Positions 4,297-11,967 of a stretch of DNA of 32,000 nucleotides are shown in pieces. This stretch comes from Candidatus Saccharimonadota bacterium. Its GTDB lineage: Bacteria; Patescibacteriota; Saccharimonadia; Saccharimonadales; UBA4665. Below the pieces are notes generated by a model that was not told where the DNA came from, did no database searches, and was given only the letters and a program-made list of their open reading frames with translations. Where the stretch lies: the NCBI GenBank assembly GCA_963718045.1, contig OY970350.1, positions 510,001 to 542,000 of the forward strand. Direction: 5' to 3'. Within the stretch, counting starts at the first letter, position 1. Each line of letters begins with the position of its first letter. Position numbers and translations under genes: made by a program.

Positions 4297-5055
4297 ATGT
4301 CATTTCCGCAGCCAGCTCTTAGAAAAGTACCAGAAATAACTGCCTTATTTTGGATTGTTAAGCTACTTACTACGGCAATGGGTGAAGCGACATCAGATTT
4401 TTTTGTTTTTAAATATAATAAATACCTTGCTGTATTTTTAGGCGGAGTAGTGCTGGCAATTGCTCTGGTAATGCAGTTCTCGGTTCGTAAATACAATGCC
4501 TGGATATATTGGTTTGCAGTAGCAATGGTTGCTGTCTTTGGTACTATGGCTGCCGACGCGCTGCATATTCAGCTTCACATACCATATGTTGTTTCGACTA
4601 TCTTTTTTGCCATTGTTCTGGCAATTGTTTTTATAGTCTGGAAGAAAACCGAGAAAACCTTATCAATCCACAGCATAAATACACGTCGCCGTGAATTATT
4701 CTACTGGCTGACTGTTCTATCGACGTTTGCCCTAGGTACAGCTGCCGGTGATTTAATGGCCACTACTGTCGGACTTGGTTACTTTGGGGCGGGTTTACTA
4801 TTTACAGGTTTATTTGCAATTCCCGGAATCATCTACTTTGTAACCCGAAAACATGAAATCCTCTGGTTTTGGGTTGCCTATGTATTAACTAGGCCGCTTG
4901 GAGCATCTTTTGCAGATTGGACTAGTAAACCCCGCCGTATTAGTGGCCTTGACTACGGGGACGGCCATGTTGCCATTGTTTTAACAATAGTAATTATTAT
5001 CTTTGTGGCATTTCTAGCGGTTAGCCGCGTAGATATTAAAAAAATTAGCAACTAA
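4297..5055 (+). CDS. Polytopic membrane protein, COG4705-like (uncharacterised membrane-anchored protein family)
   Basis: 252-aa ORF with about 7-8 hydrophobic segments and repeated G(E/T)xxxD motifs (MGEATSDF, GTAAGDL, GASFADW). The family assignment is from memory of the motif pattern only. Confidence 0.55.
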   Translation: MSFPQPALRKVPEITALFWIVKLLTTAMGEATSDFFVFKYNKYLAVFLGGVVLAIALVMQFSVRKYNAWIYWFAVAMVAVFGTMAADALHIQLHIPYVVSTIFFAIVLAIVFIVWKKTEKTLSIHSINTRRRELFYWLTVLSTFALGTAAGDLMATTVGLGYFGAGLLFTGLFAIPGIIYFVTRKHEILWFWVAYVLTRPLGASFADWTSKPRRISGLDYGDGHVAIVLTIVIIIFVAFLAVSRVDIKKISN

Positions 5056-7920: not shown

Positions 7921-8361
7921 ATGGCTGGCAGTAAACCAAAAAACAGTTTCGAAGAAAAACACTTGGAGAGAATATTTCCTAGTTGGTACACCATACTTTA
8001 TGGTGCCGCCTGCGGTTTCTTAATACCCTGGACAATATCCATCGCTATTATCCTGCCGCCTCATTATGTTTCTAACCACTGGGACGCAGCCTGGGTCGGT
8101 TTTGACGCTTTTCAATGTGTACTTTTTGCTCTAACTGCCTATTTAACCTTTAAACATTCTATCTGGACTGCTCTAACCTCAGCCATGCTCGGTACTACTC
8201 TAGTAGTTGATGCTTGGTTTGATATTATGACCGCCAGAACTACAAAAGATATTAGATTGGCTATCGTTGAAGCAGTGATTGTTGAAGTTCCTCTAGCTCT
8301 TATCTCCTTCTATTTGTCGCGCCGTATATTTAATGGAATCCATAAAAATTACACAGATTAA
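7921..8361 (+). CDS. Small integral membrane protein (about 4 TM), unknown function
   Basis: 146-aa hydrophobic ORF. A TATAAT box sits at about 7906-7911 upstream. Its stop codon (8359-8361) lies inside the left inverted repeat of the adjacent IS element. Confidence 0.55.
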   Translation: MAGSKPKNSFEEKHLERIFPSWYTILYGAACGFLIPWTISIAIILPPHYVSNHWDAAWVGFDAFQCVLFALTAYLTFKHSIWTALTSAMLGTTLVVDAWFDIMTARTTKDIRLAIVEAVIVEVPLALISFYLSRRIFNGIHKNYTD

Positions 8362-8393
8362 AATATTTCCCGCCTACATACATTACAGACCCA
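8357..8393. repeat. Left terminal inverted repeat (IR-L) of the IS1595-family element
   Basis: attaaaatatttcccgcctacatacattacagaccca equals the reverse complement of 10471-10507 with 4 mismatches. Confidence 0.75.
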
Positions 8394-8403
8394 AAGGGAT
8401 TAA

Positions 8404-8880
8404 ATGACGTTATCTAGTGTTACAATTTATGATATGGATGCAAGCGGTCAACCCTTAGAGTTAAGAACTATGGTTGATACTATTTCGTTGTCGCTTAGCA
8501 CTTATTCAATAACGATGCCAACAGCTGATAGTGGATTAAACAATCTTAGTATTTCGATTAGCCCAAAAGGTATCGACCACTCTAGCCCTCATCAAGCAGA
8601 TAATCACCCGACGGTTTACTATAACCTTGGTTATGGCATTTTGAACGCTGATATTGCATACCCCACACCATCTCAGACAGAAAGTTCGCTTTATTTACAA
8701 AAATATGGTAATGTAATAGTGTACGACAAGTACGATTTTTTTGAACTTTTGACGGACGTTCCATATTTAGCCGAAAACTATCCACATCAAACTATGCGTG
8801 CTGTTGTTTTCTCGCCCTTCAATAATACCGTTAGCACAGTTAGAAGCTACTACTTTATAAGAAGATATGAAGATGAATAA
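8404..8880 (+). CDS. Hypothetical protein, IS passenger gene 1 (158 aa)
   Basis: ORF preceded by an SD-like aaaggga at the inner edge of IR-L. It overlaps the next ORF by 14 nt. No recognisable domain. Confidence 0.5.
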   Translation: MTLSSVTIYDMDASGQPLELRTMVDTISLSLSTYSITMPTADSGLNNLSISISPKGIDHSSPHQADNHPTVYYNLGYGILNADIAYPTPSQTESSLYLQKYGNVIVYDKYDFFELLTDVPYLAENYPHQTMRAVVFSPFNNTVSTVRSYYFIRRYEDE

Positions 8881-9160
8881 ATCTGCCCCGAACACAATTA
8901 ATGACTGGACTATTACATACAGCGAGTATGTTGATACTTTGCATGTGTTTGATAAGTCAATAAACAAAAAATCCAACAAGGAGCTACAAAAAATAAAAGC
9001 AGGACATGTGGTTTATATTTTTGATAAGAATACACACTCGCCTTTAATGCTGGAGGTTGATAATGCTACCCACAACTTCGGTGACGTTGATAAAATGGAT
9101 AAAAAGCTTATAATTCAAAAGGTAAAAGAATTGGTAAATAACTATGGCAGCACAGAATAA
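8867..9160 (+). CDS. Hypothetical small protein, IS passenger gene 2 (DUF2283/YuzE-like at motif level)
   Basis: 97 aa. The pattern WTITYSEYVDTLHVF...GHVVYIFDKN...LMLEVDNA resembles the ITYD..D.LYI...DyD..G.i.GIEi.nA layout of DUF2283 proteins. It overlaps both neighbours. Confidence 0.45.
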   Translation: MKMNKSAPNTINDWTITYSEYVDTLHVFDKSINKKSNKELQKIKAGHVVYIFDKNTHSPLMLEVDNATHNFGDVDKMDKKLIIQKVKELVNNYGSTE

Positions 9161-9422
9161 ACCAGTTAAACTATTATCCAGCGTCCCCGCAGTAGCAGTA
9201 GACGGTCATGGTATAGGGATAGACCCGAATACTGGTGTTGGCAATTTAGTCTTTATACAACTTGTAATGTCTCAGACGAAAGAACAGCCAAAAGATAAAG
9301 AATTAGAGGGCAATGTAGTTTCTAGCGTAAGATTAAGCCTAGAACAACTTGAAGGACTCAATACTGCTCTTACTAATGCTATAAAAAATTACAAAAACAC
9401 CAAAAAAGAAACAAAGAAGTAA
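9144..9422 (+). CDS. Hypothetical small protein, IS passenger gene 3 (DUF3467-like at motif level)
   Basis: 92 aa. The C-terminal VVSSVRLSLEQLEGLNTALTNAIKNYKN resembles the conserved C-terminal helix region of DUF3467. It overlaps the previous ORF by 17 nt. Confidence 0.4.
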   Translation: MAAQNKPVKLLSSVPAVAVDGHGIGIDPNTGVGNLVFIQLVMSQTKEQPKDKELEGNVVSSVRLSLEQLEGLNTALTNAIKNYKNTKKETKK

Positions 9423-9547
9423 CTATTATAGTTATTTCTTGGGTGGTGGAGCGGTTGCGATTTTCTTTAAAGCACGTTTAAAGGTAGTGTCTATTATGTA
9501 AGGCTTTTCACGCTTGAGTTTCTTAGCTGTCACATAACCATTTTAGC

Positions 9548-10435
9548 CTATAAGTTTCTTGTAAGGCAAATGTCGGCCGTTAATTCTAGTAAGCCAGTCA
9601 TCAAAACGCTCACCGCCGTCAACTCCCTAGTGTTCCAGCGATAGCTGTATTCCTTAACATAGAATTGAAGGTGTTTGGGGCTTACGCCGACATAGATGGC
9701 GTCAATTCCGTTCTTTAGATGACTCCAGTATCCCTCAATAGTGTTAGTATGTACTACCCCTTTAGCATATTCACCTTTAGAATGATTGACCCTGTAGTGT
9801 TCATATCCCATGTCAGGGATGAGGTGCTTGTACATAGGGAAGTAATCAGTATGAATAGTAGCTGTAGGGCTTACTGACTTTCTAATCACAGGTTCAACTG
9901 TACCACCAGCTACAAAAGGCATAACTTGAGCCTTTACGCTGCCACCCCTCTCAACCATACCGAATACTGGTACTTTAGTAGTGCCACGACCTGCAACTCT
10001 CTTACCAGCCTTACGATTACCCTCATAAGTCTCATCAATCTCTACAATGCCATCTAAGGGTTTCTCAACGCCATATTCCATAGCGTAACGTATACGGTGA
10101 AGTATGAACCATGCTGTCTTTTGGGTAACATCTAGATACTCAGCCAGTCTTATTGAGCTTATACCCTTCTTTTGTGAGGTTAGAAGGTATACGGCCATGA
10201 ACCACTTTTGTAGTGAGATATGGCTATCGGTGAAGATAGTACCGACTTTAGCTGTAAACTTCTTCCTACAGTCTTTACACTTGAATAATAGGCCATCTTT
10301 AAACTTATATGTATCTACTATGCCACAATGAGGGCAGTAACGGCCATTGAACCATCTAGTCTTTTCGAGGTATACTAGGCACGATTTCTCATCAGGAAAT
10401 TCTTTGTAAAAATTAACTAAATTTAATCCCTTCAT
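9548..10435 (-). CDS. IS1595 family transposase (N-terminal zinc ribbon + ISXO2-like DDE domain)
   Basis: CPHCG...CKDCRKKFTAKVGTIFTDSHISLQKWFMAVYLLTSQKKGISSIRLAEYLDVTQKTAWFILHRIRYAM is the hallmark N-terminus of IS1595/ISXO2-like transposases. 295 aa and apparently intact. Confidence 0.9.
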   Translation of the reverse strand: MKGLNLVNFYKEFPDEKSCLVYLEKTRWFNGRYCPHCGIVDTYKFKDGLLFKCKDCRKKFTAKVGTIFTDSHISLQKWFMAVYLLTSQKKGISSIRLAEYLDVTQKTAWFILHRIRYAMEYGVEKPLDGIVEIDETYEGNRKAGKRVAGRGTTKVPVFGMVERGGSVKAQVMPFVAGGTVEPVIRKSVSPTATIHTDYFPMYKHLIPDMGYEHYRVNHSKGEYAKGVVHTNTIEGYWSHLKNGIDAIYVGVSPKHLQFYVKEYSYRWNTRELTAVSVLMTGLLELTADICLTRNL

Positions 10436-10470
10436 TATGAACCTTTCTACCTCTATTCTATCAAATTATT

Positions 10471-10507
10471 CTGGGTCTGTCAAGTATATAAGCGGGAAAT
10501 ATTTTAA
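10471..10507. repeat. Right terminal inverted repeat (IR-R) of the IS1595-family element
   Basis: tgggtctgtcaagtatataagcgggaaatattttaat. Its reverse complement matches 8357-8393. Confidence 0.75.
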
Positions 10508-10579
10508 TAAATATTATTGACTGTATAACTAATATGTGGCATATTTTGGGTATATAAAGAGATTACTAGGGGAGAACTC

Positions 10580-11263
10580 ATGGTGCCTACGGCGCTACTA
10601 ATTGAAGATAACAGGGCGGTCAACGAGACATTGTCGGCCGCACTTAATAAAAGTTACAATTTAATATCTGTTGGTCTAGGCAATGAGGGGTTAAGTTTAA
10701 TTAAAAGTGAGACGCCAGAGTTAATAATCTTAGATCTAAATTTACCTGATCGATCAGGTCTGAGTATCTGCCGTGAAGCAAGAAAAATTGGCGTTAAGGC
10801 GCCAATTTTAATAGTCAGCGGTGACAGTAGATTATCTACTAAGCTAGAGCTATTTAGCGCCGGAGCTGACGATTACATTGTTAAGCCTTTTTCTTTGGGT
10901 GAACTGGAAGCTAGACTAAAAGCGCTACTAAGGCGCTTAAATACCTATAAGCAGATGTTATCCAGTCCCCGGACCCCTTCGTTAATCTTAGACAGGGCAA
11001 GTGAAAGTGTCAGCCGAGAAGGTGGTGAGCCGATTAGTTTAAGGCACAAAGAGTATGCCATATTGGACTATCTCATACAAAATGCCGGACACTGCGTAAG
11101 CCGGTCAAAGTTAGTTAGCCAAGTTTGGAAAAACAACTCCAAGCCATGGTCTAATACGATCGATGTTCATGTTAACAGCCTGAGAGATAAGATAGATAAA
11201 CCATACCCTAAGCCTTTAATTAGTACTGTGCACGGTGTAGGTTACAGATTAGAGAATAGGTAA
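10580..11263 (+). CDS. OmpR-family response regulator (REC + winged-helix DNA-binding domain)
   Basis: Receiver motifs (LIEDN, ELIILDLNLPDRSG, ILIVSG, KPF) and a C-terminal trans_reg_C pattern (LRHKEYAILDYL...IDVHVNSLRDKI...TVHGVGYRL). SD aggggag upstream. Confidence 0.92.
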   Translation: MVPTALLIEDNRAVNETLSAALNKSYNLISVGLGNEGLSLIKSETPELIILDLNLPDRSGLSICREARKIGVKAPILIVSGDSRLSTKLELFSAGADDYIVKPFSLGELEARLKALLRRLNTYKQMLSSPRTPSLILDRASESVSREGGEPISLRHKEYAILDYLIQNAGHCVSRSKLVSQVWKNNSKPWSNTIDVHVNSLRDKIDKPYPKPLISTVHGVGYRLENR

Positions 11264-11967
11264 TGTCTGGCGGAATATTATTGGTCAAGAAAAAGAATAA
11301 GTCTTCTACCAGCTATTTCTCTGATTGGGATAGAAATCTCTTAAGTTTAATCCATGAGTTAAGCGGTCCGATGACCTCAGCTAGATTAAACTTGGAATCG
11401 TTCGTTGAAAGCGAGGATAGGCAAAGCTTAGCCTTACTTGAGTCCAATCTTAAATTAATGGAAGATTATCTACAGTCAGCCAGGCAGCTCATTAAGAGGC
11501 AGCCTGTGCCAGCTAGGCCATTCTCGGTTAATAAACAGTTGGCAGATATTATTAAGAACTTAAGGCCCGTAGCCAGTCAAAGAGATGTCAGCTTAAACAT
11601 GAACGTCATTGAAGACTGTGCCCTCCATGGCAACTCAACTAGATTTAAGCAGATAATTAGCTGCTTTATCCGAAACGGGATTGAGGCATATGATGACTGT
11701 CTGCATAGCCATAAGTCTGTTACCATTGAGCATTACCATATCCCCTCTTATTTGGTCATTAGCGTAACTGATCACGGCAGCGGTATTACCGAGGAAGACA
11801 AGGCTAAGATTTTTAGGCCTTATTTTTCAACTAAGAGAACTTCCAGCGGCCTGGGTCTTGGTTTAAGCCTGGCTGCCGAATCAATCACCGAAGACTTTGA
11901 CGGACAAGTTAAGGTTGATTCAGACAAAACCCACGGCACCGTCTTTAGCCTGTATTTTGCCCGCTGA
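11263..11967 (+). CDS. Soluble sensor histidine kinase lacking TM and sensor domains
   Basis: H-box LIHELSGPMTSA, N-box FIRNGIEAY, G1 DHGSGI, G2 SSGLGLGLS. Only about 30 aa precede the H-box and there is no hydrophobic segment. The start overlaps the RR stop (TAATG). Confidence 0.86.
   Translation: MSGGILLVKKKNKSSTSYFSDWDRNLLSLIHELSGPMTSARLNLESFVESEDRQSLALLESNLKLMEDYLQSARQLIKRQPVPARPFSVNKQLADIIKNLRPVASQRDVSLNMNVIEDCALHGNSTRFKQIISCFIRNGIEAYDDCLHSHKSVTIEHYHIPSYLVISVTDHGSGITEEDKAKIFRPYFSTKRTSSGLGLGLSLAAESITEDFDGQVKVDSDKTHGTVFSLYFAR

Follow-up and report, generated by a model that had tools for sequence, protein, structure and literature searches.

A probable IS1595-family transporter insertion sequence with a three-gene cargo in a very small bacterial genome

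Layout and boundaries of the element

The DNA analysed here, hereafter the window, is a 32-kb stretch of contig OY970350.1 (positions 510,001 to 542,000). Positions 8369-10496 of the window are occupied by a 2128-bp element, with an IS1595-family transposase gene at one end and three convergent open reading frames (ORFs) at the other. We consider this element, with a probability of about 0.85, to be an IS1595-family transporter insertion sequence (tIS) with 25-bp inverted repeats (IRs), an 8-bp target-site duplication and a three-gene cargo. Transporter elements, i.e. insertion sequences (IS) that carry passenger genes, have been reported in the IS1595 and IS66 families (Siguier et al. 2009), in keeping with the original prediction for this locus, which held that passenger-carrying subgroups of the IS1595 family are known. 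The following features, given in window coordinates, define the element:

8361 to 8368, no strand: left copy of the target duplication, AAATATTT, palindromic
8369 to 8393, plus strand: left inverted repeat (IRL), 25 bp, CCCGCCTACATACATTACAGACCCA; the cargo-side end, with three mismatches against the family core CGCCTATATACTTGACAGACCCA
8434 to 8880, plus strand: cargo gene 1 (ORF1), 148 amino acids (aa) from ATG 8434; a start at 8404 adds 10 residues
8873 to 9160, plus strand: cargo gene 2 (ORF2), 95 aa (gene call); overlaps the ORF1 stop by 8 nt; alternative ATG at 8867
9144 to 9422, plus strand: cargo gene 3 (ORF3), 92 aa; overlaps ORF2 by 17 nt
9543 to 10435, minus strand: IS1595-family transposase gene with a 1-nt deletion at about 9626; called ORF 9548-10435, 295 aa
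10472 to 10496, minus strand: right inverted repeat (IRR), 25 bp, reverse complement CCCGCTTATATACTTGACAGACCCA; the transposase-side end, with one mismatch against the family core
10497 to 10504, no strand: right copy of the target duplication, AAATATTT

The transposase matches Pfam DDE_Tnp_IS1595 (PF12762, E 2.8e-35) and, through an N-terminal zinc ribbon, Zn_ribbon_IS1595 (PF12760, E 1.3e-12), both above cut-off. It also matches NCBIfam NF033547 transpos_IS1595 (E 4.9e-62, 209.6 bits against a cut-off of 75), and the family assignment of the original prediction is thus upheld.

A repeat search returned inverted arms at 8357-8393 and 10472-10508 (37 nt, 33/37 positions or 89% complementary). 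This pair had been described before; the repeat is real and its match count stands, while the right arm, previously given as 10471-10507, had been placed one base off. The further claim that both ends share their outer 17 nt is borne out, as the window contains the 17-mer ATTAAAATATTTCCCGC at exactly two places, one per strand. By chance 0.16 copies are expected with up to three mismatches, and two copies were reached in 0/100 shuffles. Neither a further IR-like core nor a second transposase fragment was found in the whole window, which includes the interval 9423-9547 between cargo and transposase that had been described as free of comparable repeats.

The extent of the IRs was determined by comparison with related ends. 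Public metagenome contigs were scanned with the IR core CGCYTAYATACWTKACARACCCA, yielding 52 loci. The core CGCYTAYATAC..ACCCA is common to the 52 metagenomic ends, and as a 23-nt sequence it terminates the elements both on the transposase side and on the far side of the cargo genes. When the loci are aligned on this core, the likeness ends 2 nt outside CGC (..cgCGCC.. or ..ggCGCT..) and the DNA beyond differs from locus to locus. Relatives terminate in GGCGCTTATATAC, CGCGCCTATATAC or GGCACTTATACC, and the window element terminates in CCCGCCTACATAC and CCCGCTTATATAC. The tip was placed 2 nt outside CGC because of these 52 ends and because the 8-bp duplications of three relatives, which were verified, lie exactly at that position (AGTAGGAT in L053, ATAAATAT in L040 and TATTTCTT in L085). 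Hence, the IRs are 25 bp in length, with 21/25 positions matching between IRL and IRR, and the element measures 2128 bp, as opposed to the 37 bp and 2151 bp first proposed. Judged by this alignment, the left repeat at 8369-8393 is a true element end.

A target duplication of 8 bp is usual for the IS1595 family. The original prediction had found no clean one at this locus, yet a perfect 8-bp direct repeat, AAATATTT, adjoins both tips. It is its own reverse complement, and the 4 nt further out are symmetric as well (ATTA at 8357-8360, TAAT at 10505-10508). The palindromic duplication and the four symmetric nucleotides together supply 12 apparent extra IR bases, which accounts for both the 37-bp estimate and the overlooked duplication. 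The empty site reconstructed with a single copy of AAATATTT contains the 16-bp palindrome ATTAAAATATTTTAAT and reads CATAAAAATTACACAGATTAAAATATTTTAATAAATATTATTGACTG in its wider context. Under the duplication reading the uninterrupted site would be ACAGATTAAAATATTTTAATAAATATT. Since the duplication brackets all 2128 bp, the three ORFs lie inside the transposed unit and are passengers, as had been proposed: the cargo transposed together with the transposase as one unit.

Directly inside IRL, 12 nt (AAGGGATTAAAT) are identical to transposase codons 2-5 in inverted orientation (the transposase starts ATG AAG GGA TTA AAT). The pair, 8394-8412 and 10414-10432, extends to 16/19 matches, a score reached in 21 of 2000 shuffles. 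This echo might be what is left of another IS copy in inverted orientation, the tIS then having arisen from a compound structure, or it could be due to chance.

The three-gene cargo and its relatives

The three ORFs predicted at 8404-8880, 8867-9160 and 9144-9422, convergent with the minus-strand frame 9548-10435, are all present, but the start of ORF1 moves to 8434. Gene-caller starts, the alignment of homologues and a predicted local distance difference test (pLDDT) score below 50 for model residues 1-10 agree on this position. ORF3 has a Lys-rich C-terminal tail and contains the invariant motifs PA..DGH.I and R.S..Q. The GC content is 0.366 in the cargo, 0.415 in the transposase gene and 0.42 in the flanks. 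Upstream of ORF1 lies a candidate promoter element:

8419 to 8427, plus strand: extended -10-like box, TGTTACAAT, 6 nt upstream of ATG 8434

This DNA is kept in register in L079 and L085, and in the form TGATACAAT in L084, at protein identities of only ~30-37%. In L083 and L087, TATAAT is found 6-8 nt ahead of the ATG. We infer from this conservation that TGTTACAAT is the cargo promoter, which would give rise to a leaderless or near-leaderless mRNA. One strain (L071 4484-4939 / L078 1826-2281, Logan contig ERR11593885_281081) has an indel close to the 3' terminus of ORF1 that shortens the locus by 1 nt, and its ORF1 call is 151 aa instead of 158 aa. Decay of the cargo may have begun in some of the population; alternatively, the C-terminus of ORF1 may be dispensable.

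Word-indexed searches of 5.8 billion clusters with ORF1, ORF2 and ORF3 returned only the proteins themselves. An exhaustive phmmer search with ORF1, covering 1.84 billion representatives, yielded ~9 true relatives of 100-146 aa with 29-38% identity. ORF1 founds a small family without a known domain, which is very rare (~10 clusters among 1.84 billion). Contigs bearing ORF1 are L079, L080, L082, L083, L084, L085/L086 and L087, as well as L081, which has room for ORF1 only. On every contig of sufficient length the gene order is ORF1 (131-150 aa), ORF2 (~90-96 aa) and ORF3 (84-99 aa), with stop/start overlaps being usual. Homology throughout was confirmed by tblastn for ORF2, with syntenic homologues of 27-36% identity in L079, L080, L082, L085 and L087, and for ORF3, with syntenic homologues of 31-45% identity. 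As ORF2 and ORF3 are homologous throughout and the order is fixed, the three ORFs are real genes that are inherited as a unit. Paralogy between ORF2 and ORF3 was considered and rejected (hhalign probability 0.1).

A second element with the same module is found in L085/L086, in a setting of housekeeping genes (PriA, def, fmt, IF-2 and S1). Here a convergent gene for a 288-aa IS1595 transposase comes after the ORF1-3 module, and the whole unit of 2514 bp is bounded by 26-nt IRs, GGCACTTATACCGTTAGTGTAGGTAA and GGCAATTATCCCTTGACAGTAGGTAA (tips GGCACTTATACC.. and GGCAATTATCCC..), and by the duplication TATTTCTT. Between the window and L085, identity is 34-36% for the transposase, 37% for ORF1, 33% for ORF2 and 45% for ORF3, i.e. 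the divergence of the transposase is similar to that of the cargo (33-45%). An IS-type end immediately before ORF1 is also present in L079 and L084, giving four of the eight contexts overall. Read from these comparisons, the cargo is a conserved, long-standing partner of such elements and not a chance capture. It is possible, if doubtful, that the ORF1-3 operon marks an unrecognised IS1595 lineage of ultra-small bacteria of the candidate phyla radiation (CPR)/Patescibacteria type, in which a dedicated three-protein module would have co-evolved with the transposase from a deep common ancestor onwards and would serve the element itself, for example in addiction, in conflict or immunity, or in the control of transposition.

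Cargo of other kinds is found among the sister elements (L018-L069, from soil and other metagenomes), which have the IR core CGCCTATATACTTGACAGACCCA, the same tip and 8-bp duplications; in many of them it lies between the transposase and the far IR. Their transposases are 42-62% identical to that of the window, a value that rises to 74% in L029, a Saccharibacteria fragment with the sequence of L010. Cargo is enclosed between the IRs in L038 (1928 bp, with an Imm5-like gene), L040 (~2300 bp) and L053 (2215 bp). The commonest sister cargo is an Imm5-like putative immunity protein (PF21805, E 1.3e-40), encoded for example at L038 10339-10850 and L022 1978-2490 and in L019, L030, L031 and L067. 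In L022/L028 a 1130-bp derivative has kept its cargo together with only a ~40-codon transposase stub, and is a non-autonomous cargo cassette. By the gene content of these loci, cargo carriage is common in the IR-core clade. Some sister elements are interrupted by, or lie next to, other mobile DNA: judged by eye from the translations, L019 has a ~400-aa ORF resembling an IS200/IS605-type TnpB/OrfB, and L066 a 675-aa ORF resembling a group II intron reverse transcriptase.

The original prediction could name no function for the cargo, and the same holds after library searches, as none of the three proteins gave a match above cut-off in Pfam, PHROGs, PADLOC, NCBIfam or PDB profiles. The best PHROGs match (E 0.0018) is to families of unknown function. 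Assignment of ORF3 to DUF3467 (PF11950) was rejected, the score being 14.7 bits against a 25-bit cut-off and inconsistent between members: a sub-threshold match was seen in 2/4 ORF3-family members of alignment A2 and in 0/3 further members scanned. An AlphaFold2 (AF2) model of ORF1 (8404-8877, 10-sequence alignment) shows an alpha/beta domain with a pLDDT of 81 and a predicted template modelling score (pTM) of 0.78. No significant neighbour of the model was found in the PDB using Foldseek (best E 0.24). The top five matches in BFVD, which were not significant, are segments of very large phage proteins (394-1114 aa) annotated as PolyVal ADP-ribosyltransferase, nuclease or ParB-like (probability 0.75-0.98, E 0.02-0.08, TM 0.33-0.46). 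The likeness of the modelled ORF1 to phage 'polyvalent' proteins may serve as a lead only. The IR core was absent from viral contigs, and no relative of ORF1 or ORF3 was found in the collections of viral contigs, phages and plasmids searched.

We conclude that the cargo is a three-protein module that rides this IS type and is self-expressed, presumably from the putative promoter ahead of ORF1. As to its role, persistence of the element or conflict between mobile elements or cells might be suggested, a low-confidence guess that draws in part on analogy with the Imm5-like sister cargo.

Transposase, small open reading frame and neighbouring genes

The catalytic residues D (EIDETY), D (HTDYF) and E..K (NTIEGYWSHLK) of the window transposase align with those of intact relatives, and all lie upstream of a frameshift. 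On this alignment the residue set D, D, E/N with a downstream K is present; the patterns E-x6-K and EYSYR (E-x3-R) were also found. Three-frame translation indicates that residues 1-270 are native and that the last 27 (..DGGERFDDWLTRINGRHLPYKKLIG*) are readable in the -1 frame only. The 74% identical relative L010, from a Candidatus Saccharibacteria metagenome-assembled genome (MAG), encodes an intact protein of 298 aa with the terminus ..NGDRFETWFKGINRHLPYKKLVG*. By this comparison a single base is missing from the transposase gene of the window, in the simplest case a G out of a GGGG run.

The frameshift is present in every contig retrieved, and the 295-aa frameshifted product is identical in independent assemblies, always at this one locus. 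The occurrence of an identical lesion in independent assemblies argues that it is real and not a sequencing error. Programmed -1 frameshifting was rejected, since the site ACT AGG GAG is no slippery heptamer. No intact transposase frame, as an autonomous copy would have, is present in the window, and this copy is probably no longer autonomous. In all genomes of the species that were sampled the element sits at this location only, and it is most likely a fossil that would be mobile only with a transposase supplied in trans. The best annotated plasmid transposases are at most 45% identical to it and are labelled only 'IS1595 family transposase'. At the far end of L010, no convincing IR was found in the 960 bp searched.

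Two further minus-strand features accompany the transposase gene:

10455 to 10483, minus strand: transposase promoter-like site, with -35 TTGACA inside IRR, a 17-nt spacer, TG and -10 TAGAAT; 11/12 matches
9432 to 9533, minus strand: small conserved ORF, 33 aa from a conserved GTG, VTAKKLKREKPYIIDTTFKRALKKIATAPPPKK; in the transposase frame, after its TAA

The stop of the small ORF lies 9 nt from that of ORF3. In total, 36 codons are open in the same frame after the transposase TAA (9432-9545) and are conserved with L010 3328-3444, the encoded peptides being ..KPYIIDTTFKRALKKIATAPPPKK in the window and ..RPYKIDTTFKRALKKIAKAPPKDK in L010. Over 38 codons, both stops included, window and L010 show 17 synonymous-only and 10 non-synonymous differences. 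This stretch is conserved better than the last 25 transposase codons, and the GTG is kept at codon 4. It would encode a basic peptide of 33 aa or, alternatively, extend the transposase by read-through of its stop codon. Peptides resembling '..L(K/R)RMLATPP.PH..' are found near the far IR in L040 and L053.

With respect to the surrounding genes, the first base of the duplicated 8-mer is also the final base of the stop codon (8359-8361) in an upstream gene encoding a 146-aa protein. On the opposite side, 12 nt separate the insertion from the downstream -35 hexamer of a predicted promoter (TTGACT-17-CATATT, 10517-10545), which precedes a response-regulator/histidine-kinase pair at 10580-11967. 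Insertion beside this promoter may have altered transcription into that operon (10509-10579 region). TAAAA-rich flanks adjoin many unrelated copies among the 52 loci, suggesting a target preference rather than element sequence. Elsewhere in the window, the DUF347 gene at 4297-5055 is a single 252-aa ORF, as it is in most contigs; in ENA contig ERZ25039526:contig_15255 (L001 1893-2652) it is split into 151 aa and 99 aa, through either a strain frameshift or an assembly error.

Proposed history, alternatives and known systems

In the history we propose, a zinc-ribbon DDE transposase would have recognised both 25-bp IRs and moved the transposase gene and the three-gene operon in one event. The target would have been an AT-rich palindromic intergenic site after the gene for the 146-aa protein, of which the 8 bp AAATATTT were duplicated on insertion. 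The transposase would be read inward from the promoter with its -35 box in IRR, and ORF1-ORF2-ORF3 inward from the opposite end, probably from their own extended -10 box upstream of ATG 8434. A later base loss near the 3' end of the transposase gene would have left the copy stuck at one site.

Several observations weigh against a tIS that arose in this manner. The duplications of L040, L053 and L085 are non-palindromic, unlike AAATATTT. An empty site was absent from all contigs that encode either the 146-aa protein upstream or the response regulator downstream in identical form; the insertion is present in all 15 contigs with an identical flanking gene, and these contigs are 99.7-100% identical to the window. 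Without an empty site, it is the duplication by itself that carries the case for a single-event insertion. The same set of contigs bears on a condition under which the original prediction was to fail, namely that the three ORFs occur at this locus free of transposase and IRs: no such case was found, all contigs with identical flanks carrying the insertion. Furthermore, L080 (tRNA) and L084 (dehydrogenase) have no transposase after the module, so the link between module and element is not obligate. The nearest transposase relatives (L010 at 74% and the 50-60% clade) are without the ORF1-3 cargo, and a function could be assigned to no cargo protein from the libraries searched.

A tentative alternative is that the operon is an accessory part of the element, consisting either of transposition helpers or regulators, as TnpA/TnpB in IS66, or of an addiction or conflict module that retains the element in its host. 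The operon and the transposase are found together again at deep divergence and in the same convergent layout, with an IS end directly before ORF1 in half of the contexts (4/8), but the closest transposase relatives are without the module and only two complete module-carrying elements are known. The rarity of the family is as expected from spread mainly with the element. That the transposase is broken while the cargo is intact argues against a role in transposition only. For a conflict module, one might point to the Imm5-like immunity genes of the sister clade and to the phage polyvalent protein segments that are the best, albeit not significant, structural neighbours of ORF1, whereas no homology to toxin, antitoxin, defence or transposition proteins was seen in the libraries searched.

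We regard it as improbable that the IRs are 37 bp in length (8357-8393 and 10472-10508), bounding a 2152-bp element without a duplication that arrived by recombination or whose duplication was lost. This would imply conserved ends running through ATTAAAATATTTCC, whereas the likeness of the 52 related ends stops 2 nt outside CGC. It would explain why the outer 12 nt are identical (12/12) while the inner 25 nt contain 4 mismatches, and it would remove the unlikely coincidence of a palindromic duplication flanked by four symmetric bases, other duplications not being palindromic. However, the duplications of L040, L053 and L085 begin at that tip, precisely where the window has a perfect 8-nt repeat. 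Outside the IR core of L010, TTAAAA is present at a matching offset, but the recurrent TAAAA-rich flanks fit a target preference. It is highly improbable that the three ORFs are host genes lying between a solo IR or second-IS remnant and an ordinary 1.1-kb IS, the 2.1 kb never having been one unit: although no minimal IR-transposase-IR element of this clade was recovered and the inverted echo of the transposase start inside IRL hints at a second copy, the 8-bp duplication brackets the entire 2128 bp, no IR-like sequence lies between ORF3 and the transposase (9 nt between convergent stops), the arrangement IRL-cargo-transposase-IRR with its own duplication is repeated in L085, a different genome, and the cargo GC is below that of the flanks.

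The preferred reading, a tIS with 25-bp IRs, can be set against the known element types. Members of the ISNwi1 subgroup have ends of the form ggnnatTAT, a DDEK set with an ER4 motif and an 8-bp duplication, and the '+' members, with passengers, measure 1.75-4.75 kb. The ends of the window element (GGCGCTTAT-type in relatives) together with E-x6-K and E-x3-R resemble these characters and may place it near ISNwi1 / ISNwi1+. To our knowledge, the tIS cargo described so far is heterogeneous and element-specific.

The window element has the domains, catalytic residues, terminal IRs and 8-bp duplication of the IS1595 family (the duplication being palindromic and without an empty site). It has non-transposition genes between the IRs of a single IS, has no internal IR, and is paralleled by L085, as befits a tIS. 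With tIS of the ISNwi1+ / ISPna2+ type it shares one zinc-ribbon IS1595 DDE transposase, short imperfect IRs, an 8-bp duplication, extra genes inside the IRs and a length ~2x that of a minimal member. It differs in that its cargo is a syntenic three-gene operon recurring beside a 34-36% identical transposase, and in that the window copy is frameshifted and resides in a ~0.8-Mb, probably Saccharibacteria, genome. The sister IR-core elements differ in carrying Imm5-like genes, helix-turn-helix and other genes, or no recognisable cargo, none having ORF1-3, and their cargo is usually on the transposase strand (L038, L040, L053).

IS66 elements (tnpA-tnpB-tnpC) likewise combine a DDE transposase with small, translationally coupled conserved ORFs, and tIS are reported among them. 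However, there is no sequence similarity, and the small ORFs of IS66 are co-directional and upstream, whereas the window operon is convergent. Compound transposons also mobilise non-transposition genes via IS ends but need two IS copies; this type was rejected for the window, which has a single transposase gene and only two IR cores.

The tIS is thus a kind already known; the novelty lies in this member, in its host group and most of all in the recurrent three-gene cargo. For annotation, the locus is a caution that a palindromic target duplication can mimic IR length and so hide itself. Cargo-carrying IS make the distinction between IS and transposon less sharp and provide horizontal gene transfer with a minimal vehicle. 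Here such an element has been delimited to the base in a genome that is very small and probably belongs to the Saccharibacteria, a group in which mobile elements are poorly catalogued. The recurrence of the module in a very distant element of the same design makes it a concrete case, and one that can be tested, in which selection for a function may act on the element. Should the module be no more than a hitch-hiker, ISfinder would simply gain a further IS1595 tIS; if instead module and transposase co-evolved in a lineage of their own, the operon would be a new functional system with essentially no existence outside IS cargo.

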